Positions 205 to 24,713 of a stretch of DNA of 64,000 nt are shown here, one piece after another (position 1 is the first letter of the stretch; every line of letters begins with the position of its first letter). The notes under the pieces were generated by a model. The model made no database searches. It was not told the DNA's origin and saw nothing but the letters and a program-made list of their open reading frames with translations. The position numbers and the translations under genes were made by a program. Origin of the DNA: Hydrolagus colliei (taxonomy: Eukaryota); NCBI GenBank assembly GCA_035084275.1, contig CM068768.1, positions 2,914,001-2,978,000 of the forward strand. The letters run 5' to 3'.

Positions 205-961
205 ATGTCAAGCATAAACTGTCTCGAATTCTCCTTCGATTGTGAACTCGGATTATAAATAACTTTATAAGATATTTTTCCATATTTTCCTAAAGATGTA
301 TTCAGTCTAGTTTTCTTTTTATCTTTTAACTGTCACATCCAACTAACTCTATGAACCGACAAGAAAACCCATGGCTTTAATGAAGTAAATTTCATTATCT
401 TTGCACTAAAGCTTTGTTTCCCCCGAAAACAAAATCCCCGAAGGACTTCTCTACCCATCAGCAAACCACCACAGAGTCAACAGCCGCCAACAACAAACGG
501 CTTCACTGGACTGTGATTGTCAGCAGAGTTACCAGGACGGTAAACATTCTCAAAGAGTGGTAAAGAGTGGCTTTCAAACGCTTTTCAGAGCGACAAATAA
601 ATCCGACAGGAGAATGCGCCCAGGGAATAAGTTTTAAGTCTGGAGCCGTTTCAAGGTTAGGAACTCCGGGGGGGAAAAACAATAGAGGAAAGGGGAAAAA
701 AACTTGAGAAGTTCAACCATTTGTGGTGTGTTGCCTCCAGGATACGCTAATAAACAGCTCAAATCACCAGCAGAGCTAGTTAATTTGCAACAAAATCTTC
801 CTTCCTTCCTTCCCTCCTTGCTTTTAAAAGAAACAGAATGTGGATTTTTGAACCAAACAATATTGACATTATCTGAAGACGTCTTGAACTTTGCAGTCAC
901 ACAAACACATCCATGATCAAGTACAATGTACAGCTAGGGATGGTTCCATCCTTCTTTGTAG
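205..961 (+). pseudogene. Putative HoxB12 pseudogene, exon 1 relic (stops and frameshifts)
   Basis: ATG at 205. In-frame D-I-F-P-Y-F-P-K at 271-294 resembles PG12 D-T-F-Y-F-P-N at nearly the same offset (66 vs 63 nt). Y..R-Q-E-N-P-W at 350-374 resembles SYPRRDN..W. LSEDVLNFAV near 870-900 and P-S-L at 950-958 resemble the HoxD12 exon 1 end. Paralog sequences are from memory. Confidence 0.55.
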
Positions 962-1064: not shown

Positions 1065-1329
1065 GTTTGTGAGAGGGTCTAAATATATAAAGAGGTATTT
1101 CTGTAGGCGTTCTACATGCGGTGTACACAGCAGCCAGACAGTTTATGGCCTGTCTGTGTCAATTTTATGTGAGGACAGACTGCAAGCTGACAAAAAAAAC
1201 TCTCTGCTAACAAACACCAAATCGGTAGAGAGGGGGTGGGAGAGAAATCAAGCTCTTCCGAGCCTGCACAAACAAAGGAGAAAACGACAGCAGCTTTTAA
1301 CCCGGGAATCCGAAGGTAATTGCAAGTAA
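1065..1329 (+). pseudogene. Putative HoxB12 pseudogene, exon 2 (homeobox) relic
   Basis: Acceptor TTGCAG|GT TTG TGA (cf. G|GLPW). QFMA at 1139-1150 (cf. EF[LM]). DRLQADKK at 1174-1197 (cf. DRLNLSDQQ). Ungapped HKQRRKRQQLLTRE at 1267-1308 (cf. QNRRMKKKRLLLRE), then 6 codons and a stop, the same tail length as PG12. Confidence 0.6.
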
Positions 1330-1489
1330 GTAGGTTTCCTTTCAAATAATCGCTGAGTGAAAAGAGAAAGGGCAGATACATATTCAGTGTTGTGACTGGG
1401 TGAAAATTTGCTTTCAGGTTCGAAAAATATAGCAACATAGCTGTCGGCCACTGCAATAAAATGAATCACTCTACACACAGCTATCATTC

Positions 1490-1506
1490 GTGTGTGTGTG
1501 TGTGTG
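1490..1506. repeat. (GT)n microsatellite
   Basis: Direct reading. Confidence 0.9.
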
Positions 1507-2939: not shown

Positions 2940-3100
2940 GTTCAGTTTAACTTCATCCGAAGGACAGCAGTTCTAACAATTCAACACACCCCTTGCTCTG
3001 TATTGGAATGTTATGGACTCAATGATTTTCAATGCCCGACGTGGGGCTTGAACACCTAACCTCTTGACTCAGAGACGAGAATGCTTCCCACTGAGCCAGG
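2940..3100 (-). mobile_element. tRNA-derived SINE 5' portion
   Basis: The minus strand reads TGGCTCAGTGG (A box, 3088-3098) and GTTCAAGCC (B box, 3045-3053), followed by a GCTGTCCTTCGGATGA body. No full cloverleaf, so not a tRNA gene. Confidence 0.7.
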
Positions 3101-5938
3101 TGACACACCGGGTATTAGGTGAAACATTCTTTGCCAGTTCTGGGGACCACAATAGGAGGTTTTGCATACAATTCAATCTGTTAGGTTGAATTCAGCGGAT
3201 TTTTGTATTCATATGCAAGCCTTAAAATACAAATAATGACACATTCAAAAGAAGTCTAGCATCGAGTTGTGATATAGAATTAAATCAACTCATCCATGTG
3301 GATGTCCTGAAAGATGTAGGATATTACAAACTGCTTTTACAGTCTTTAGATTATTATCAATATTACAACAGTTATTAATGAAGCAACTATATTAGTTGGC
3401 CTATTATGCTGGAAATTGTAAATAAATACATAAATCACGACACACACAACGGCAATTTCCTGTGAACAACTTTGAGGGTTTGCGACGCTGAAAGCGCTGT
3501 ATCAAATTCAATGCATTTTATTATAAGGTTACTGGTCTTCTCCACAACTTCCCTTCGCCTGGTACTAACTGCACTCCATCAGTCCAACTGCCAATAAGAG
3601 GTTGCATCCGGAAGGTTATCCTTCTTCTCACTTTCACAAGCCTCGTGAACCACTGTGCATTTCCTCCACTGTCGTTTCAGCATTAATTATACAGAAAGTA
3701 ATGGTTATGGCCAGTGATAGAAAGTGGTGTTATTACGATCAATGTTAGGTCAGTTTGTCCTACCACATTGTATAGGATTGCAATAGAAATATAATTTAGT
3801 GATATATTGAAATGATCGGCAGTTTTGAACATATAAACTAACCTACGCAGTCAAACCATGGGTTTGAGTTGTTTTTATTGGAACGATTGATGTAAGAAAA
3901 TGTCCATTAAAGTGCCATCCATTTATAAATGGAAATAAGCGAACTAGTGTTTGTGCCCAATGATAATTAAATGTGGGCGCAAAGTTATTTGCTGTATGTA
4001 ATGTCTGATGTTGGATACCAATATTCTACGAACGGGTTATCGTATTGTCCAACATTCGCTTTACAAGAGTAATCCCATCGCAACGTTTGTGATGCATGCG
4101 ATTTAAGAAAACAGCCAATATTTAGATGACTATAACTTAGCAATGTGCACCGCAGCTTGAATTTGAGCAAGATTTATTAACGAAAAAGTTGTTTTTGGTA
4201 GGAAAACTAGGGCATAGTAAACGAGAAATAGGCAATTAAATGTTGTCTGTTTGACACGCAGACTCTGAAATGAAGTGGTTGTTATGTTCCGACTTAATGC
4301 ACAGCGTTGGCCAACTGAGGAAATATGTAGCTAAAGTTTACTAATTACAAATGATGCCCCGTGGAACTTGCTTTTAAATAAAGAGATTAATTGAACCAAC
4401 GTTAATTAAATTTATGAAAAAGTTCTAGTTTAATTTGCTCAGAGCGAATAAGGGAATCTGCAACTGTCGAGTGCTCCAGTTAGTGACCATAAAAAAAACT
4501 CTTTGTGTGACCATTAGATAGCGGAGGAAGACGGGCAATGTGCCATCGAGGGTTACATAAAGTTCCGGGTGCATTTTAAAGTTAAACATTCATGGAAATC
4601 TAAGCGTTTTATCACTTTTCTACATTAACATCTTTATTATGTTTGCAAAAGTGGGTACACGTACAAAAGGAACACCGAGTGACACAAACAGAGTATCAAG
4701 TTAAGGAGCATAGCAATCCGTATCGACACAACTAATAGGAATCTTAGGAATGAGTTTACAACTGCAAAAACAAATTTTAGACGAATATTTTAAGTGAGCT
4801 ATTTCTTAATTCTTAATCTTGCCCTTTATGTTTTATGTCTGGTGTAATTTATTTAAACAAACCGGGTCTTTTATAATGAGAACCGGCAGATCTGGATCAG
4901 AATCCTGGGCTTGATAAACTACAACCACCCCCCACCCCCGCCCGCGCACCAGACATTCCAGTAAATATCTTTGTTCAATAACACAAATGAAAATAACTTT
5001 GTACATATTCCTATTTACCGCAAAAACGTTTTCTTTTCATTCTAAATACCTGCAACTGAAACATGCCATCGTACAGTTTAGTACGATTTGCATGTTAGGG
5101 ATTCACTCTGGAAATAGGGGACAATGAATAACAAAAGAAACACGGTTATAGTAACTTTAGAAACTTATTTTTCGTTGAAAGTCTGAGCAAAGTCTGGCAG
5201 AACATATGCTTTTACTAAACATATAATTCTCACGAGATATATATCCCTGCACAACAACTCCTATTGTATGGAATGGAAGATATAATAAGGATAATAATCC
5301 TTGCATTTAATATAATAAAGTTGTTCCCACGAAAGAACCCGATTGTCCCGTCCTCAGAGAGCAGAGCAGTGGATATGTTTTTCCTTAAAGCTTTGACCCA
5401 TTCTTGGTTTTTTCAAATTGACGTTATGGAGCAACAAATACTTTAGGATGGATTTTGAAGAGTTACATTGACACAACTGGAGCAAATCCAATTCGTATGG
5501 TGTGCCCCTAAAACCAAATGTTTGAACTAACTAAGCAATATTAATATTTCTTTGGTAAAGTCATATCTGCGTAGCATGTCTCTCTTTGTTGTTTACATAT
5601 ACAGGAAGGAGAAGAGCCTCCCACTTGACCTTGTAAATAGATTACAAGGTTATCTTACAGATCACCAATAAACAAAGATGCAATGTAAAGCAGGACCAAC
5701 TTCAAATTGTGTCACGGATCCTTATTGCTTTCGGATCTGAGTCCACGCTTATAACAAACTGTTTGAAAGGGTTGTAACGGATTCCTTGTAGGTAGATGTT
5801 TATGACCTTGTATATTTAAAAACTGGACAGCGACAAGTCAAAATGCTATATCCTGACCGCAAGCCGCTTATCAGCGCTTCTTTTTCCTTTCTGTTCTTTT
5901 GCTGAATGTTCATTCGCTCAACCAGGTTGCCACAGATA

Positions 5939-6000
5939 CATAAGAACTTAAGAAATGCCAGACGAAAAATAACCAAGGTCCATCTCGTTCGCCTTCCACT
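5939..6000 (-). mobile_element. Degraded CR1/L2-type LINE 3' end
   Basis: CATAAGAACTTAAGAAAT...GGTCCATCT is the reverse complement of a (TTCTTATG)n-type CR1 tail and the adjacent 3' UTR. Confidence 0.45.
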
Positions 6001-6370
6001 TTTCTGGTGGTCGCATAGTGATAGGATGCTGTAGGTGACTAACATTCAATATACCGGACAAACGAAGTCTAGATTTTCCAGAAGCAGAATAGCCAAATTT
6101 CGAAGATTGTATAAATAGCAGAGTAAACAACATTATATTATTTAGGGAGGCAAATTATACATTTTGTTCAGATGCCCAAAACGAAGCACAGGCACGGAGA
6201 CAGATAGTTACCTAGAAAACCTTCCATCTGATTCACTTTTGGAAGATTTTATCTATGGTGGATTCTGGAGAAAATCCTCTCCTCATAAAAATGTGTTATT
6301 TTAAGATTGACATTCAGACTTCAGTTTCAAATTTAGAAAAATATTTTCCTTCTAGATCACTTGTATAATT

Positions 6371-7272
6371 ATGAGTTTTGTCTACTTTTTCTGATTCCGC
6401 TCATCTCTTTCTTCCGTACTTTCTTATCTTTCTTCTGCCACGGGGTCTCTGTCCTACCTCACACTCGCTCTCGCTCATTCTGAATCCTCTCCTTCTCTCA
6501 GACAAACACAGCGCCTAACCATCCCCTCTGGTCCAACAATTGCTGTCTTTGAACTTCCGTCCGGTCAAGGTTACCTTTGACCCCGAGGTCATTAGAAACA
6601 CATTCCATTCACTATACAAACTTCGAAACCTCCCCCCGGAAATGGGTCGATTTCGCAATCCGTCATCCTATATATCCCCCACCCCACCCCACCAAACCAC
6701 TGAAGATCAAGCCTTCAAACTTGGCGTGGAAAGGGCGGGGGCTTCATGGCTCACCTTAGAAGAAAGCAATTCTGTGTAGAAAATGTCTGGTTTGGGGGGC
6801 GTTTTGGGGTCTAAATGATGCAGGGAATCAATGTAACATTGCCATATTGTAGCAATAACAGGGTCCAGCCGTTGTCATGGACACCGTTATATATCACCTA
6901 TCCTTAATAAGATTTAATGGCTGGTGTTTTGAGGCGGGCGATTGGCATTAATCCAATTTCGACCAATTAGATAGAAATTTCATGTAACCCATGATTTCAC
7001 ACAAACATTCAAAGGGTGACAACGACCTCCGGGGAAACAAACATGACATTTTGATGCCAAACAGTAACAGGGCAATCTACATAATCCGCAGGATGGCGCA
7101 ATCAACGTCCACTCATAATCGCAGTAAAATTGTGCAGAGTGTTATAAAATCCCCCAACGCATATCTACACACAGGGAGGAAGGGAAGGAACAGAGGTGCG
7201 GAAGGCATGGTCACTGTGAGACGCACAACACACACAAGACACGCTCTCCTCAACACACTAACAAGCCGGCAG
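6371..7272 (+). pseudogene. Putative HoxB11 pseudogene, exon 1 relic
   Basis: Ordered PG11-like motifs: SFSQT and WSN (6490-6537). In ORF 6540-6779: RPVKVTFD (cf. QPVREVTFR[DE]), RNTFHSLY (cf. HoxC11 RNSYSSCY), LPP, PTP and QAFKLGVERA (cf. QAFDQFFETA). Ends at a strong donor GCAG|GTAAGC (GT 7273). The 5' boundary is uncertain. Confidence 0.6.
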
Positions 7273-8043
7273 GTAAGCGAGTTTGGCCTGTACACTTTCA
7301 AATACTGCCGTTCTCTCAAAGGAAGAATTCAATCGTGTGTGTTTTTGTTTTACTTGATTGAAGTTTTCTTATCTTAACTCATGGCGAAAGTTTATTACGA
7401 TCACAGAGGAAACCCTGGGGAAAAACGAAGTTCGGGGTTTTAAAAAAAAGTGGATCCAATCTCTGTCAGTTTGAAACCTCGCTTTTTGATTTGCAGAATT
7501 AGCGGCGAAGGAAGTTTGGTTCGCTTCATATTTTTCTTGTGATTTAGGTATTTCGTTTCACTGTCCCGCATTAGATAGAACTGCATGTAGTATATGAATG
7601 AATGTATATTTGCCTCAGTCTAATGAAACGTGGTATTATGTTGTCGTTATTGTTCAGCTTTTCTCTCCAGACATATAACTTTGACTGTATAGCTAATTGT
7701 GAGCATCAGCATATCACATACCCTTTCCACAAACTAACTATTTACTTTTTTTTGTTTGGATACATACATACCGTTAGTTACGTTCGCGATTGAACATATT
7801 TAAATGTCATAATTTTGAGAATTATCTCTATTAAATGTGGATGCATTCTGTGTGTTTTTATTAAGTAATGCAGTTGTAGAAAAAATAATTTAGGTTGTTT
7901 TCCTGCCGCTTATAGTGCTGAATTGTTTATTTCAATTTCCCCAAATGTATTTTATTCTTGGTTCCATAACCAATTACGTGGGAGCTACTTATCAACGTCT
8001 ACAGGAAGGCCTACATTCTATTTCGTGTTTTCTCTTCTAACAG

Positions 8044-8330
8044 CAATATCTTGAGAAATGCCATTGACTTTGGAAATTCTGGCTCTTTGTGGAATTATAA
8101 ATACTTCACATCGAAAATTGGTGTATGTTTGAATAAATGTAAAATGCGGTTCTTCAGTAATGGTATTGACTCTTTTCTGTTGTTGTTTGTTTGGTTGATC
8201 TCAAGCTTAAAGGAACAGGAAGGCAAAGCGGAGAGTTGAGATCAGCTAATTGGAAAGGCAGTAAAGAATGAAAGACAGTTTAATGCACAGACTGGCATTC
8301 AGTCTCTTTACAGACCTGTCTGGACTGTAA
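8044..8330 (+). pseudogene. Putative HoxB11 pseudogene, exon 2 (homeobox) relic
   Basis: Strong acceptor TTTTCTCTTCTAACAG| (8043). AAATAC-tt-CAC-ATC-GA-AAA-TTG-G at 8099-8121 resembles the codons for the PG11-diagnostic KYQIREL. FFSNGID at 8150-8170 (cf. FFFNVYIN). TGG...AGA ATG AAA GA at 8251-8275 (W...RMKE). GAC TGG..CAG..F-T-x-x-x-x-L-stop at 8290-8330 (cf. DRLQYFTGNPLL-stop). Confidence 0.65.
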
Positions 8331-8884: not shown

Positions 8885-9816
8885 TCTCTGTTTGCAGACA
8901 TTGAGTCAGCTTTGTGTCATGCAATGTAAGAAATAGAAAAGATTATTTTATGTACATTCAAGTATAATTTTAGTTCTTTTTTCAGTAGAAGTAAAGAAAA
9001 ACCAGAAGAATGTCCTTTGTGTATAATACATTTACTCTGTTTATTTATTTATTTGAAATATTCATTACACACGCTCTTTCCATACGTGCAGAAAATTCCT
9101 ATGACATAATGAAATAGCGGTTAATGAGCATTTATACAATAATCTTAAGAACAATTGCAGAATTTTCCAATTTTCCAACTATTTTCTCAGCATATCAACA
9201 GAGGCAAGGATACGTCTGTGCTTTATTCGAGTTATTGAGAATAGACTTTTTGTGTTATTTTAAATCGTTTTATCCAAAGGCTTAGTTACATCTCAAAGTG
9301 TTTTATTAAAGTAGATGTTTTGATTTACAGAAACCAGCCAACTCACGTAAAGGCGCCATTTCAAATTCACGTTGCCAATTCTGGTCTTTGTGCGTAATTA
9401 TTGACTGAGGATTATATTTCGGGAACTGTGTGATTTATAAGTCATTTACAAACATACATTTTTATCTAAAACGCGATCCTGATGTGAACCCAATCATCGA
9501 ATGTCGAAATTATTAGAATATTAACGAATAATTATAGATAATAATTAGATAAAACATGTCTTTGCCTTTGTTTTCAGAGAGCATATGATTCTTCGATAGG
9601 ATTCATTGATATGTCGATCATAAAGCGATATATTTGATTTTACACTTAATTGCGGTTTCATTTTCTTTTCGCTCCCCAACTCAGACCCAGCATTAACACT
9701 ATATTTAAGTAGGTCACTGTGATCAACTCAGGCCTATCCCAAGTAAGATGGCAGACGAACTGACGCGAACAATTCTTTTCAACGTCAACTAAAATATAAA
9801 CCTGGACAGTATATTC

Positions 9817-9885
9817 TGTGAAGCGCTTTGAGACGTGTAGAAGACGTCAAGGATTCAAGAATTAAATTTAAGGATTGTTATTATT
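9817..9885 (+). mobile_element. SINE 3' tail fragment
   Basis: TGTGAAGCGCTTTGAGACGT...AAGGATTGTTATTATT, similar to the minus-strand copy at 24905-24975. Confidence 0.6.
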
Positions 9886-10151
9886 CTTGATGGAGAAAAA
9901 ATGAATAATATTAAACGGGCAGAAAAATAATATTAATTTAAATCAATTTTAAATATATTGAATGTTATTAATAACGATATAAACCGCTGATTGTTTGATT
10001 TCAATGAAATTGAAGAATGATTATTATTATTTATTATTATTTTCTGCCCACTACCTTTCTTATCTATCTTTTGACTACATTGTTCGTTGAATTAACCTCA
10101 GTCGTATTGTGGCGTTCGATTTTTCTTCAATTCAAGCAAAATAATTATAAA

Positions 10152-10392
10152 TTTTTTCACTCAGCGAGTTGTTCGAACTGGAATGCATTGCCTGAAAAGG
10201 TGGTGGAGGCTGATTCGATAACAACTTTTAAAAGGGAATTAGATCTTTATTTAGGGAGAACGGGTCTATTAGGCTATGGGGAGCGGGCAGGGCAGTGGGA
10301 TTGAATCGCTCTTTTCAAAGAGCCGGCACAGACTAGATGGGCCGAATGGCCTCCTTTTGTGCCGTAAAATTCTATGATTCTATGATTCTATG
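10152..10392 (+). mobile_element. 5'-truncated CR1-clade LINE (ORF2 C-terminus, 3' UTR and tail)
   Basis: Encodes FFTQRVVR/WNALPEKVVEADSITTFKRELDLYL with a 1-nt frameshift. The 3' UTR contains GATGGGCCGAATGGCCTCCT and ends in (ATTCTATG)x3. Confidence 0.9.
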
Positions 10393-13407: not shown

Positions 13408-13996
13408 AGGTAGGTTCAGATATGAATATTTGGTCAATAATTATATACATAAACTCCTTCAGATCATATACATTGGTTTCTTGTTTATCTGGGGGATAGC
13501 AAGCAATTTGCTAAATATATTTCTACTCATGGAAAATAGTTGAGTACCTTATTGATTCCTTCTCTTTCTAAAGATTGGAGGTGATTTAGTAAACCTCATA
13601 TATAGATGTACTGAATGCCCCACCCCCAACACATACAGGCGACACATACACACAAGTCCATATACGTGCAAAATGAAGCACATACATACAGACAGACATC
13701 GCTTTGTTTCTCTTCTGAGCTGAAAATCATTTTCTCGTGGGCCTCGTAATTGAGCAGAAGACAGAAAACAGAAAATCTCAGACTATTTTCACCCATGCAA
13801 CCGACCAGACATTATACGCAGAATTCTTACTGTTCTGGGAGAGAAATGTATCTTCAGAGCATGCCCTCCCCCATGTGATAGTTTCTCCCTTTGCCTTTCT
13901 CAAATATCATCCAGTTTTGAAATGTTATGAAGGCAAGCATATCGAATTCCTTTCGTTTGAGAACATGCATTTTTTGCCCTGGGAGTGGGAGTGTGT

Positions 13997-14040
13997 GGGG
14001 GATGGTGGGGGGGGGGGGGGGGGGGGAGGGGGGGGGGGGG
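13997..14040 (+). repeat. Poly-G tract
   Basis: Direct reading; exact length may be affected by sequencing error. Confidence 0.85.
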
Positions 14041-15578
14041 TGTTGGTAGAGAAGGGGGAATCTCAAATCCCATTTACACCCTAATCCGATAATCGCAAAG
14101 CAGATGCTTACCGAGCTCTGGCCACGGATCCAACTCAGAGGCCTTTGTATTATTGCTATTTGGAGCACTGGAAATATGATCTGACATTGCGACTCAGCTT
14201 TAGCCAGGAAAGAATTTCATCCAGGATGAAAACAACCGTTTCACAAAATCTGCAGTTCGTTAGCCGTCAATAAAAACTTCCTTTCTGTCATTCAAGATTT
14301 AATCTTTCTTGAAATATATAAAATCCACAACATGGAAAATCCCGTGCAGATGATTAATTGATAAAATGTTTTAGCACAAGTATGTATCCACAATTGTCAC
14401 AGAAGGAAAGGTAAGTTGTTGACCACGCATCAATTTAACGTTAGTTCAAGTTAAATAATATTTGTAGAATATGCAAGCAATTATTCTGTAAATACAAGGT
14501 ACATTGGGATCACTATCTTCCTGGGATTTTAGGAGAAAATATGTATTGTGTATTGTATTTATCGGTTCTTGGAGCTCGAATACTTATTCTGAATGAAATC
14601 AACAATTTAACTGCGTATTTCCTGTGAACCCATTTATCACCAAGCGTGTAAGTGCGCTTTACACATTAATAACCCAGGTCAGTATATTCATAGACATAGC
14701 GGTTGATATTTTTTTGCGTGTTTCACCGAAACAAATCAACGATAAAGTATGGCAAGTAAACTTGACCACTTGTTGTGAGAAAGCGAATAATGAGGGATTG
14801 TGAATGAACATGGGGCAAAAAGAATGAAAATATCATTTTAAAAAATCAATAATTCTCATGCTAAAAGAATAACAAGCTATTGAGAAGCATTTAGCACAAT
14901 TAGATGTTTGGTTATTTAGTTTGAACACTCTACAATGTAAAAAAAATCTGTTGAATATATATTCACTGAATGCAAACATGGGTTATATTTCAAAAGTTAT
15001 GAGCTAGATTGAGATGGATAACATTAAATACTTCTAAAAGGAAACTTTTACTGTTAGTTAACCACGACATTATTCTGATTGAAAATTAAAACTACATGTT
15101 AATTGCTATTAAATAAATTATATATTTATAACACTTAGGATGTTAAAATATGGGGTGTTAGAAACTGCAACCATTCCAATGCAAGACAAGTGATACTTTG
15201 ATTAATGAATGGACATTATAGCCTTCAGAATCCTCACTCACTTTCCTCATGGAAAAGGCTCCTGGTATTTGGATATTTTCTTGTTCAGTTCGCCATGAAA
15301 CGGAATTAGAGAGGAAAAAGCAGAGAACTCGTGTAGCTATTTACCGCTCGCCATTCTGTAAAATAAACTGCAAATTGTAACCTTGGTTTGATTTATTCGG
15401 ACACGCAAACATAAGCAGCGATGTTGCCCATTGAAACAATGATTTGCACGTGAAGAGAAAGGATGAAAGCTTGAGTCATATTAATAAAGCAGGATTGATA
15501 AGGTTATTCACAATAACTAGGTGTAAGTGAACATTGCCAATGCATCAATTTTCGACTCTTTTTCAAACCACCAAGATG

Positions 15579-15714: not shown

Positions 15715-16444
15715 ATGTCATGTTCCGAGAATTCTGCTTCCAGCTCGTTTTCAGTGAGCTCCTTGATTTGCCCCAACCGACCGGAACCTTACTGTTCTGG
15801 GGGCTATTTGCCCTTCAGATCGGAGCAGAGCCACGGGTTACAGAATTGGCAAGTTGGCGTTGCACAGCGTAAACAGGGTGGGATGAATCAGCAGCAAGGT
15901 ATAGGCTTGGCTCCACACCACTACGTGCCAGCGATGGTAGGCTGGGTAAATCAGCCACCCCCCAGCCAGCCAGACCGACTCCAACAGACGACTAGCTGTT
16001 CTTTCGCGCCCAGCGTTAAGGAGGAAGGGAACTATTGCTTGTTAGATGGAGACAAACACCCGAAGACGCCACCAAGCGTTTCTTCTTACCCGAGGTTGTC
16101 GGAAATTTGCTCTGGTGACAGTGGTAGAGTTTCTGTACCAAGGTATTTCCGTCCCAACGCAACCTACGCATCAAACAAGCCCACGGATTACAACCCTCTG
16201 CAGCCGCTCGCTGCGCAGTGCTCGGTTCAATCCAGCAGTTGCTTCAACCCCCCCTTCGCCGCGCCACCAACATTATCCTCTTCAAAACCAGGTGGGAAGG
16301 ACACAAGCGTGACGGTTTCGAGCGATCCGGGCCACGAAGAACCCGCAAAGAATGGAGACGAACGGGAGCCCCACTTCGCAGAAGATGCGTCGCCTTTGCG
16401 GTTTGTTGACGTCGACAAAACTATTTCAGAGAAAGAAGTAAAAG
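15715..16444 (+). CDS. HOXB10: Homeobox protein Hox-B10, exon 1
   Basis: MSCSENSASSSFSVSSLI and SCSFAPSVKEE..YCL are PG10 motifs. Donor AAAG|GTGAGT, phase 1 (730 nt). Confidence 0.92.
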
Positions 16445-17244
16445 GTGAGTAAAATGAGGAAGAGAGGAAGACAAGCGATTACACGGTAATTGCAGTAATA
16501 ACAAGGCTGCAATAGGGTGAATGTAGTCAGGCGTCCCAATGAATTGTCTTTGTCTTCAGCACAAGGATCCCAATGTTCAAATTATTACCTGAGGTAATTT
16601 ATAGTACTGGCCCATTCGTCAGGGTAAGCTACAACCTAATTTAAACGACTCTTTAAAAGATCAAAACCGCGGAGTGTTTCTGTTCTGAATGTGACTGATT
16701 TCTCGACATTAGAGGCTGCCATAAAAGCCCCCAATATAAACAACCCACCTAGGCAAAAAGAAAGGTCATTCATAATGCATACGTGTTTGAAAAGAGAACT
16801 TCAAAGTACATTTTATCATATGAAAGTTAAGGTATCAAGCAAAAGCAGCTTCAGAGATAGTGGCACGTAAAGAATATGTATCATATCTATCTAAGCGCGA
16901 AAATAATATCATTATGTATGTAGAGCATATCTGAATACAAATTCAATGTAATTTAATTTTCAGGCTGTATAAGGTTACATGTATATCGCACACGAAACAT
17001 ACATGTATGTGAGTGTAATTAAATGGCTATTTATCTAAAATACTAAGCGTTTGTTTTAGAGTTAGGTCGTTTGGTAAAGAAAATAGTGAAAATAGGCAGC
17101 AATATTTCAATGGCCATTGGTATTGTGGTCTGTGGAGGCTAACAATGTTCCTCGAACATGTCTCAGGCACGGAATTGTCCCAAGTTCATCAGTTGACGCA
17201 TGTATAAAAACAGAGCCGAACCCCCAGGAAAAAAAATAAGTCGT

Positions 17245-17370
17245 TCACTTCATGGTTATGTGGGACATTGGTGTTCGCAAGTTGAGTGTCGCGTTCGCCC
17301 ACAATCTCACAGTTACTACACTTTACAGTAGATCATTTGAAGCACTTTGGGTGTCTTCCCGACGTATAAG
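17245..17370 (+). mobile_element. Degraded SINE in the HoxB10 intron
   Basis: TGTGGGACATTGGTGTTCGCAAGTTGAGTGTCGCGTT...TGAAGCACTTTGGG resembles the reverse complement of the 24960-25040 copy. Confidence 0.5.
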
Positions 17371-18958
17371 GATTTTTCGTATATTCCAAAAATTGCATCA
17401 ATGAATTCCGCATCTTCAGAATACTGAATGTAATTTATTTAAATCCTGTAATATTTACACGATCTATGTTTGTTACTAAGAGCTCTGTTAAGGCACCGAA
17501 TGAAAATCGTGTTTTGTTGAAGCTGAAAATTATTTGCTACGTTATTCCTTTGCACCTCGACACATAAAGTTAACCAAACAGTCAGAAGTGACATGGTAAA
17601 CTCAGTTAGTAGTCAAAAGTTCCAGTTAGGGAAAAATATTGCGTTTGTTAACTTTTTTTTAAGATAGACCAATTATTTAAAATATAATTTAAAAACTCAA
17701 AGTTTCAATGTTATGTTTTAAAAGTTGTTTCAAGAATGTATTGAAATTTTGCTCATGCAACAAGTCATCAATATTTTAGATACATGCATAAGATATATTA
17801 AAGGTACGAATTAAGGCAATTAAAAAAATACAATATCCATTTAAGGTATCATTGTTGTATTGCAATAGAAATAGGATGACAATTTCGTTCCCTATTCATG
17901 AAAATATGCAAACATATTTTCCTTGGTGATTCTGCCTTGGTGATTAGGAAGAAAATAAAAATGCCTCGTGTTTAAAGATGTTTAAAGAGGACATTCATAA
18001 TAAATATTCCCCGAGTGAAATATTCATATTTTTTGTAAGAGAAAATCGAATGCTTTTTGCATTCCAAACGCTGTTTTACTATGAACTGCATCGATCCCTT
18101 ATTCGAATGGTACCGATACTAAATCAGATTCAGATTCACTTCATCGCAATTCCAGGTTAAAAATTATTGGATCTATGGGCTATATCAGATGGTTAAATAG
18201 ATGGGGGAGGACTGAGTCCCTCACATTTATACTGCAATTTCTGGTTTGCATTCTCCAAAGTGTGTATATACTAACTTATCATTTACTGTTTGGCGTGAAG
18301 ACATTTCTCATGCAATACCAAATGCCTTTTCAAACACATATGATTCAACATATTTTAAAGCAATACAAAACAACGATTACTCAATTGATCATTAGCAAGC
18401 TTTGTAAAGGTGCATGTTTGATTCATGTTTTATTGTTCAAACTAAGCCACGAAGTCGTTTTTGGTCGCTTATTTCTTTCCAAACTTGCTGCTCTTCATTT
18501 GGCCTTCTTTTGCCATTTGCTGCATTTGAAAAAGGCCACATGCCATTGATCTAAGAAGTTGCATAGTTAAATTGCAAAAACGAAACCAAGAATGTTAGCA
18601 AATACACAAATACACAAATTATCAGTGTGGATAGAATTCAAACAGTATCAGAGAAATTTATTTCTTTCCTTTCCTCGAAAGATTAGAGACCAAAATGAAA
18701 GAGAGTGTAACCAGGAAATGCATGGCAAGTATGACCTTACAGACACAATATTAATTTGAGGACCACAATACTTTCCTTGTACTGTTTGCGACTATATTTT
18801 CTAGGTAGGAATGTGAACTGGTATTAAAATACTGTTTATTAGCTGGTACATACAGTAATAATTGTGAATCTTTATTGGTTAAAATCACTGAAATATTATT
18901 ATCAGATTTAATTTGATACAGAGGGTCTCGTAATGCTATACTTACTGTAATGACTTTG

Positions 18959-19006
18959 GAATTTGGTTTCCCGCTAACCAGAACAGAATTTGGTTTCCCG
19001 CTAACC
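18959..19006. repeat. Perfect 21-bp direct repeat, period 27
   Basis: GAATTTGGTTTCCCGCTAACC at 18959-18979 and 18986-19006. Confidence 0.95.
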
Positions 19007-20887
19007 GAGCAGGAGTATTATTATGATGTAGAATCATACAGTTATACAGCTAGTCCTTGTTTTCTCTGCTTGAGCAAACTAATCAAGACTTATACTTCGC
19101 TCCTTGCGTCCTTTAAAAAAAATATTAATTTTATTGTTTCTATAAACAAAACAGTATTGGTTTTGTGATTCAATGGTAACAAGTGAAAACATTCAATTAG
19201 TTTTCAGGTTTAAGGCACTGTAGTGGACATATCACTAGATCACAACATATCACCTTTGCGCAATAAGGATCGATTTTTAAGATGACGTTTACGAAGAATC
19301 TGGAATGGATTGTTTGCTTGGGTAAACATAGAACATTTGCATTATTTCTTTATTTCTTCTCAAAATGTTAAACGTTCCTCCTGTTGAAACTGCAATTCAA
19401 ATACATTACAATAATCAGATCCATTATTTTTCATCCTAACCGTTATTATATCCAGTCAATTTTCACCTAAACCGAGCAATGAAAGTTTATTTGAAACGTA
19501 ACCATAAAACCTTCACAGAAGACTGGTTAATAGACATTGAATTATAATCCTGAGATTTTGTTTTCACTCTATTTACAAGCCTCTCCGATTTTCAGAAAAT
19601 TTGTGTTTTTACTTGCAAACAAAGACATAGTTTTTTTTAGCGCATTTACAAAAACGAATTCGGTGTATTACCTTAGTTGAGCAACTTTTCGCGCCCATTT
19701 GTGACAACTCCTTTGGCAATTAACAAACAATCGCTGTGTAAGTCTGATACTTTGCGGCGAGACAGTTCCTGCAGCTTCCTGTGTGCATCAGTCGTTAAAT
19801 ACAGAGACTTCAATCTGACCATCTAACTTTCCATTAAAAGATGAATAAATGAGTGTAAGAGGTGGTGGGAGAGGGTGGGGTGTGGGGGGGGGGGGGGGGG
19901 GGGGTGTTATTTGGAACTATCGATACTTTACAAATTGAAAAACGAGCAGCTGGAAGTAAGAAGATGAGGAATTCCCCCAAAGGAAACAGTTCCAAGTATC
20001 CGAGTGCTTGCCATTTCAAAACGACATTATTCCATCCATGTATAAATCATAACCTCCGCACAATTCAGTGCATGAACTCCTTATTGTGTGCATGGAGGAA
20101 AAGAACCTTCCCACTAACAACTGTCGCGTGATCGACAACTCACAGTGTAGAAAAGCTATTTGGTAATGCATCCATCCAGTTAGAAAAGGGGGTGACATGA
20201 TTGTCCAATGGATATTAGTCACTAAAGGAATAATGCTTGTCAATGTGGTCTCGCTGATAAATACAGCTTCGATATCAATTAGTTTAGGTTTATTTTATGC
20301 GCGCACGCACACATATATATAATACTAACGCCCTGCTTTTGTTAGGCTGCATGGGCCGCGTGTGAAGGAACATGTACAATGATTCCGGCACGTTCTGTCC
20401 ATTCACTTCACTTGGAGGGCTGTTGTCATAGGGCTATATACAAAGGCTCTCTCTCATTGATATTTTATTGCAATAGATTTCATCTCAGTAACTTTTAATG
20501 TACAGTACTGTAGGTACACTGACTTGATGTATTTTGAAAACATTTCGAGTTAAGTTCAAAGTATACAACTTTTGGCCCTGTCGCAACAGAATTCTCTCCT
20601 CCCCGCACCCCAGTCCCCAACACACACACACACACACACACACTCCCCTGGACCAAACCAACTGTGTGATTGAAAAATAAAAATAGGTTCCACTGATTTG
20701 ATGTTCAGCACCTTGTAGTTTTGAAACAGGAAGAATCGCGGATGGTTCACGCTAATTGACCCTTCTCTCCCCCTCCTCAAACGAGAGACCCTTTTGAATC
20801 TCGGGTCACGATGCTGTTGGGGTTAAATAAAGAAAGAACACTCTTATTCGGCAGTCCATTTGACAATTTGTTTTTCCCGATTGACAG

Positions 20888-21159
20888 AACACACAAAGAC
20901 GGAGAATGCGACAAACTGGCTGACTCCGAAGGGCGGGAGGAAGAAGCGTTGCCCATACACTAAACACCAGACCCTGGAGCTGGAAAAGGAATTTCTCTTT
21001 AACATGTATTTGACTCGAGAGCGCCGACTGGAGATCAGCCGGGGCGTGAATCTGTCTGACCGGCAAGTCAAAATCTGGTTTCAAAACAGAAGAATGAAGC
21101 TGAAAAAGATGAGCAGGGAAAATAGAATTCGAGAAATGCCAACCAATTTCCCCATTTGA
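20888..21159 (+). CDS. HOXB10: Homeobox protein Hox-B10, exon 2 (homeodomain); spliced protein 333 aa
   Basis: Acceptor TTGACAG|[44 protein letters not shown]...RENRIRE is PG10; the HoxB assignment follows from the neighbouring genes. Confidence 0.95.
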
Positions 21160-24629: not shown

Positions 24630-24713
24630 AACTGTTGTGTGATTCAGGTAGTTTCCTGTTGTTGGGCTGCTCTTTGTTCACAGTGACAAGAAACTGCCTT
24701 TATTACTCCAGTT
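24630..24713 (+). ncRNA. MIR196: mir-196 precursor hairpin; predicted 5p mature 24645-24666 CAGGUAGUUUCCUGUUGUUGGG
   Basis: 21/22 identity to miR-196b with seed AGGUAGU intact. The 3' arm CAGTGACAAGAAACTGCCT pairs with it and the AACTG/CAGTT basal stem closes the hairpin. Canonical position between PG10 and PG9. Confidence 0.95.

Follow-up and report, generated by a model that had tools for sequence, protein, structure and literature searches.

A decayed Hox11-type homeobox between HoxB13 and HoxB10 of the chimaera Hydrolagus colliei, probably a remnant of the lost HoxB11

Introduction

What became of HoxB11, and whether anything of it can still be read between HoxB13 and HoxB10, is the question raised by the HoxB cluster of the chimaera Hydrolagus colliei. 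The Hox inventories examined for jawed vertebrates do not list HoxB11, as far as the accessible parts of those sources go, and its loss has therefore so far been deduced solely from this absence. A surviving piece of the gene would reveal where it lay and that it decayed in situ, and would also add a fourth group-11 sequence with which the order of the cluster duplications can be tested. If orthologues were to date the loss after the split of sharks and bony fish, the Hox count of the ancestral jawed vertebrate would rise by one.

The stretch of DNA analysed, called the window throughout, is 64,000 nucleotides long and contains the chimaera HoxB cluster with six intact homeoboxes, HoxB10 to HoxB5, on the + strand. 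An original prediction had placed a two-exon HoxB11 pseudogene at 6371-8330 of the window, and it is from this prediction that the present analysis starts.

Methods

Candidate relics were scored with a nucleotide pair-HMM in which a Hox11 profile is decayed neutrally and compared with the local composition. Profiles were made from HoxA11, HoxC11 and HoxD11 and their neighbours of the same genome, together with database homologues. A background of 616 kb yielded 616 peaks. It took in 94 kb of upstream sequence and 19 other loci, each on both strands, and the interval itself on its reverse strand. Ranks are given below as the number of background peaks that score higher. The comparison between species covered close relatives only, within a few percent.

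The power of the approach was gauged by simulation and with relics elsewhere in the genome. Simulated relics were detected up to a distance (d) of ~0.7 and were lost by 0.9-1.2, with the median for exon 2 falling to 3.8 bits at d=0.9 and 0.9 bits at d=1.2, whilst that for exon 1 was 35 bits at d=0.5 and 9 at d=0.7. As positive controls, the D14 model finds the decayed Hox14 exon between Evx1 and HoxA13 with 22.0 bits, against a background maximum of 15.4, and Hox models find the Evx relic upstream of HoxB13.

The HoxB13-HoxB10 interval and its genome

The genome, of 1.0 Gb, has four Hox clusters, and exon 1 of its HoxA11 is 96% identical to that of Callorhinchus milii. As HoxB13 sits ~32.5 kb upstream of the start of the window, the gap between HoxB13 and HoxB10 is 48 kb. 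Some 11% of this interval is repeat-masked, much of it as SINE-like copies 10-27 kb upstream of the window, and within the window repeat fragments lie at 2586-2657, 2811-2883, 3035-3106, 5277-5315, 5940-6016, 9792-9906, 10149-10392 and 13974-14056. A mir-196 precursor is present at 24636-24709, between HoxB10 and HoxB9. A non-coding match of 78 nt (74%, E=0.054) was seen between sequence 3' of HoxB13, ~30.7 kb upstream of the window, and sequence 3' of HoxA13, and is possibly a paralogous conserved element.

Elsewhere in the assembly, single frameshifts interrupt the otherwise intact exon 2 of HoxC11, exon 2 of HoxC13 and exon 1 of HoxD12 (L018, L015 and L006), and these probably reflect errors in the assembly. 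Contig C39 carries a Hox6-like homeobox ~9 kb beyond HoxC11, near a 200-base gap, therefore HoxC10 to HoxC8 may be missing from the assembly. The features discussed below are collected in Table 1.

Table 1. Hox-like and neighbouring features, in window positions unless a distance upstream or a contig is given; fractions are background peaks scoring higher
Feature	Position	Strand	Score or observation
Slowly changing non-coding stretch just 5' of the relic, candidate conserved element	475..918	.	2 differences/444 nt to organism B
Frameshifted, decayed homeobox of Hox11 type reaching from the start of exon 2 to about residue 37; likely HoxB11 relic	1177..1307	+	18.2 bits, 0/616
74-nt segment between the codons for homeodomain residues 44 and 45	1326..1399	+	GTAAGT start, TGG end
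Decayed helix-3 motif, then stop codon	1400..1429	+	16.5 bits, 0/616
Probable decayed C-terminal tail	1430..1494	+	13.4 bits, 7/616 with the 3' half model, match ending at 1494
Second Hox11-like homeobox stretch, borderline	5521..5733	+	12.8 bits, 3/616
Exon 1 of the original prediction; probably ordinary single-copy intergenic DNA	6371..7272	+	No signal in any test
Intron of the original prediction	7273..8043	+	GT/AG present, no supported exons on either side
Exon 2 of the original prediction	8044..8330	+	Hox11 resemblance only in the 21-codon tail 8268-8330, within chance
HoxB10, intact, two exons; next gene downstream	15715..21159	+	
Homeobox-like stretch, 7 kb downstream of HoxB13 (L012)	~25.1-25.3 kb upstream		PG10, PG11, PG12 and D14 models score
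Two weak D14-like matches between the Evx relic and HoxB13	~52.0 and 54.4 kb upstream		16.2 and 15.5 bits
Disabled Evx-like homeobox gene, two exons, 5' of HoxB13	~68.7 and 72.4 kb upstream (near 2845300 and 2841600)	minus	
Decayed Hox14 homeobox exon, donor site and candidate next exon, between Evx1 and HoxA13 (L003)	contig C2 near 51379600-51379900		

A Hox11 match at 1177-1494

Between HoxB13 and HoxB10 there is a significant and Hox11-specific match, on the Hox strand and without an open frame. The Hox11 exon-2 model finds its best match of the whole 48-kb interval at 1177-1419, with 23.9 bits against a background maximum of 11.1 (261 peaks) and 21.8 bits against a maximum of 17.9 (none of the 616 peaks as high), figures to be read with the number of models and settings tried and with the one background peak that did reach 17.9 bits. 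Composition gives no comparable score: against the 23.2 bits observed, local Markov sequence (300 kb) reaches at most 16.6, and 400 block shuffles at most 13.4. Two non-overlapping sub-models, for homeodomain residues 1-37 and for helix 3, match in order and ~120 nt apart, each above all 616 peaks; their joint score is 34.7 against a background maximum of 26.2, in a statistic picked after the match had been seen. The C-terminal tail at 1430-1494 is not significant when taken alone. The locus is single copy and lies outside the repeat mask.

The first alternative is that this match arose by chance in a purine-rich sequence searched with many models, and that the interval holds no detectable Hox fossil. 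It could draw on the results at the protein level, where a frameshift-tolerant alignment leaves the relic short of significance (16-22/616), nhmmer gives only E=0.022 with high bias and tblastn does not have it among the matches listed. It could draw also on the want of a first exon, the best Hox11 exon-1 score upstream of the relic being 5.8 bits (65/616) with nothing from the sliding models, when simulations at the decay level of the relic would often show an exon 1 (medians as given above), and on a background that itself climbs to 17.9 and 26.2 bits in two of the statistics. Against this, the relic outscores every background, Markov and block-shuffle control, does so in two separate parts, and has all three Hox11 paralogs ranked first, and chance is a very unlikely source for it. 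A search for paralogous non-coding elements shared with the flanks of HoxA11, HoxC11 and HoxD11 found none at E<0.05 between HoxB13 and HoxB10.

Paralog group of the relic

Among the groups compared (5 and 7-14), PG11 is the one to which likelihood comparisons and simulation bring the relic closest. When single-gene models of residues 1-37 from 16 genes are ranked, HoxA11 (18.5 bits), HoxC11 (12.4) and HoxD11 (11.6) come first, followed by HoxA13 (7.9), HoxC12 (5.0), HoxD14 (3.1) and HoxD12 (1.1), and natural-exon profiles give PG11 a lead of 8.5 bits. A PG11 lead of at least 6 bits was reached by 78 of 85 simulated PG11 relics and by only 1 of 199 detected relics of groups 10, 12 and 13. The best fit is to HoxA11, with 27.4 bits at a distance of 0.4, and HoxC11 and HoxD11 give 15.2 and 13.9 bits; the distance between intact HoxA11 and HoxD11 is 0.3. 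Closeness to HoxA11 agrees with the (A,B)(C,D) tree of the clusters, as cited in the part of the source available (PMC5054437).

A real homeobox of some other group, either HoxB12 or a displaced Hox14, is the second alternative, with HoxB11 then unfound or represented by the Hox11-like stretch at 5521-5733. PG12 models do score at the relic (15.9 bits, with a joint score of 23.8 against a background maximum of 22.6), a Hox11 at 5521-5733 would lie downstream of it and give the order 12, 11, 10, and the 74-nt segment is placed where HoxD14 has its homeobox intron. However, the PG12 signal stems from helix 3, which is common to groups 10 to 12, whilst over the diagnostic residues 1-37 the scores for HoxC12, HoxD12 and HoxD14 are those given above, far below that of HoxA11. 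Relics simulated from PG12 sources no less derived than HoxC12 and HoxD12 gave the 6-bit PG11 lead in 0 of 34 cases, and on this evidence another group is a highly improbable origin. The original prediction had placed its HoxB11 between HoxB10 and a 'HoxB12 relic', which may be this same stretch at 1177-1494; the fit of the stretch to Hox11 is far closer than that to Hox12.

Structure of the relic

The stretch at 1177-1494 is probably the remnant of exon 2 of a lost HoxB11. Its frame is disabled by frameshifts and stop codons. Across 915-1550 the alignment to organism B, a close relative, has only 3 gap letters, as against the stray assembly indels seen in HoxC11, HoxC13 and HoxD12. Helix 3 at 1400-1429 is well preserved, with the conserved Trp codon changed to Cys and a stop codon following.

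The 3' half of the relic fits two registers, and the 74-nt segment at 1326-1399 aligns weakly to the 3' half of Hox11, that is to helix 3 and the tail (8.8 bits, 99/616). The GTAAGT at 1326 falls at the junction of the homeobox (second) intron of HoxD14, between codons 44 and 45, but there is no AG acceptor, the segment ending in TGG, and the Val codon at this junction begins with GT anyway. The segment may be either an intron, an insertion or a decayed first copy of helix 3 and the tail. A tandem duplication of helix 3 and tail found no support in a comparison of its two units, whose resemblance is not significant (442 of 2000 shuffles).

Comparison with organism B bears on constraint. The stretch just 5' of the relic at 475-918 differs at the two sites given in Table 1, against a rate of 3.3% for six further pieces listed (Poisson P ~6e-5), and 915-1550 differs at 10 of 636 sites against the same 3.3% (P ~0.007). 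The 5 listed differences over the 243 nt of 1177-1419 are not significantly few (P=0.19); two are toward the Hox11 base, one is away from it and two are neutral, too few to weigh. The likely HoxA14 relic lies at a distance of ~0.7 from HoxD14, and the distance of the HoxB11 relic from HoxA11 is 0.4. Coelacanth and lungfish retain HoxA14, according to the part of the source available (PMC3038165), and therefore the chimaera HoxA14 died after the split from bony fish. The less decayed HoxB11 relic may be no older, a comparison weakened by the differing paralog pairs and by possible constraint.

The stretch at 6371-8330

The letters described for the location first proposed do exist. The exon-1 motifs start at 6490, 6529, 6558, 6594, 6630, 6678 and 6708 (hand-counted), the GT at 7273-7274 and the AG at 8042-8043 are present, as are the Phe-Phe motif at 8150, the Met at 8268 and the TAA at 8328-8330, and all are in the order and on the strand claimed. 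Met to stop, 8268-8330, is 21 codons in a gapless alignment, the same as in Hox11, and from the first to the third exon-1 motif there are 68 nt against 69 in the HoxA11 of this genome. A place on the Hox strand with Hox13 to one side and Hox10 to the other is shared by all 48 kb, hence it is not diagnostic.

The remaining dimensions do not agree with HoxA11, HoxC11 and HoxD11. By hand count the motifs at 6558 and 6708 span 50 codons against 78 in HoxA11, the motif at 6708 is 565 nt from the donor against 211, and the proposed exon 2 is 287 nt against 233; for a Hox11 gene to fit here, exon 1 would have to have lost ~28 codons in frame and gained ~350 nt, and exon 2 to have gained 54 nt. The stretch 6371..7272 has one match in the genome, and 6355-7026 diverges from organism B by ~2.8%, like its flanks.

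Neither exon gave a significant PG11 alignment, and the Hox11 match at 6371-8330 proved no better than background, in tests that scored the exons and sub-models. The decay pair-HMM gives -16.7 bits for the proposed exon 1 and -0.4 for the proposed exon 2, with 616/616 background peaks higher in both cases, and the long-gap model gives exon 2 4.7 bits (61 of 261 peaks higher). Frameshift-tolerant protein alignment ranks exon 1 at 145-173/616 and exon 2 at 610-616/616, the 3' half of exon 2 alone stands at 76/616 and the Met-to-stop tail alone at 187/616, and eight sliding 30-codon models of Hox11 exon 1 all gave p of at least 0.37. With profiles of the Hox11 exons nhmmer has no match at 6371-8330, nor has a BLOSUM frameshift alignment to Hox11, Pfam finds no family for the five pieces scanned, and a genome search with PF12045 returns only HoxA11, HoxC11 and HoxD11 above its cut-off.

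As the methods lose power above a distance of 0.9, the absent signal at 6371-8330 is not proof. A pseudogene too decayed and too broken by indels for the models could be upheld by the ordered motifs with their GT and AG sites, the tail of exactly 21 codons and a long-gap peak near 8320, but it has no significant score in any test, its exon-1 score of -14.1 (matching settings) falls short of the 10th percentile of the simulations, even of those at d=1.2 (-8.5), it needs the deletion and insertions listed above and a better Hox11 candidate exists at 1177-1494, so that little credence can be given to it. The stretch is likely to be ordinary intergenic sequence. The match at 1177-1494 lends support to a HoxB11 fossil between HoxB13 and HoxB10, though not to the place originally given to it.

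Chains of motifs are easily found by eye in Hox spacers, and a background is needed to judge them. Our own by-eye reading of 6750-7272 as a Hox12 exon 1, which looked just as persuasive, gave one model its highest peak within the interval, with 87 of 616 background peaks higher, a negative full-exon score and a best sliding p of 0.10, and was rejected.

Other Hox-like stretches

The second Hox11-like stretch, at 5521-5733, fits PG11 best of four groups, and 0.23 such matches would be expected in 48 kb; if real it would imply that Hox11 was duplicated in tandem within HoxB. An exon 1 of Hox11 type read by eye beside it, at 4989-5421, was rejected (209/616), and spans the repeat tail at 5277-5315. 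Rejected likewise was an apparent exon pair at about -14.3 and -13.1 kb, of which the second part is in a repeat and the joint score is not significant. The stretch near -25.2 kb has 1-4 of 616 peaks higher for groups 10-12, which is not significant, and lies at about the distance from HoxB13 that separates HoxD12 from HoxD13; it offers a lead as a candidate HoxB12 relic.

Further 5', the Evx-like relic, which has a stop in helix 3 and scores 22 bits with a Hox model, is probably an EvxB pseudogene. The two D14-like matches between it and HoxB13, barely above the background maximum of 15.4, are candidates for a HoxB14 pseudogene. The decayed Hox14 exon between Evx1 and HoxA13 is likely to be the HoxA14 pseudogene, which the available part of PMC3707753 would lead one to expect at that position.

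A proposed history of HoxB11

HoxB11 would have arisen with the cluster duplications and been inactivated in place, with its decay since then proceeding by substitutions and small indels. Its exon 1 would have decayed or been deleted past detection, and the homeobox would be the last detectable part because its ancestral sequence is the best known. The relic presumably makes no Hox protein, and that it can still be read may owe to a low substitution rate or to overlap with regulatory DNA.

Whether HoxB11 was still working after cartilaginous and bony fish had split, and was lost independently in each line, is a tentative proposal that we consider somewhat doubtful. The fuller version, in which HoxB11 was lost late and separately in each lineage, kept an ancient homeobox intron not known outside Hox14, lamprey Hox13beta and the posterior Hox genes of amphioxus, and left remains that together with 475-918 are now regulatory DNA, is unlikely.

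The literature searched contains no HoxB11 pseudogene, with most subscription papers, preprint supplements and the key elephant shark paper outside that search, and for HoxB11 and HoxB12 there is no title on fish relics among the matches listed. No intact protein named HoxB11 is found elsewhere among the best 120 of 625 and the best 120 of 274 matches listed, nor does the name occur in the 19 representatives examined out of 60, four of the 19 being nameless. The HoxB11 relic is probably new to the literature.

Comparison with known systems

Intact HoxA11, HoxC11 and HoxD11 (L001, L018 and L005) are one close comparison. The relic is collinear with them over exon 2 on the same strand, with 131 of 202 aligned bases shared with HoxA11, and its distance to Hox10 of 14.2 kb compares with 11.4 kb in HoxA and 9.1 kb in HoxD. 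It differs from them in its frameshifts and stops, the lost Trp of helix 3, the 74 extra nucleotides and the lack of a detectable exon 1 (PF12045).

A homeobox split by an intron is described, in the part of the source available, for vertebrate Hox14, lamprey Hox13beta and amphioxus Hox11 and Hox14 (PMC3707753). The 74-nt segment of the relic resembles these in starting with GTAAGT at the second-intron junction of HoxD14 and differs from them in having no AG acceptor; intact HoxA11, HoxC11 and HoxD11 are without such an intron.

A parallel in kind is provided by the chimaera Hox14 pseudogenes, which like the HoxB11 relic are unprocessed and have remained at their original site within a chimaera Hox cluster, and the likely HoxA14 relic of this genome falls in the same score range. 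They differ in group and place, the relic being of group 11 and between HoxB13 and HoxB10. The reviewed Hox inventory, in the part of it available, has 45 genes and as pseudogenes only two Hox14. The spacer between HoxB9/10 and HoxB13 has been described as gene-free, again in the part of the source available (bioRxiv 10.1101/2024.07.20.604409). This is the same interval, and here a coding remnant remains detectable in it, which suggests decay in place and not clean deletion, at least in chimaeras.
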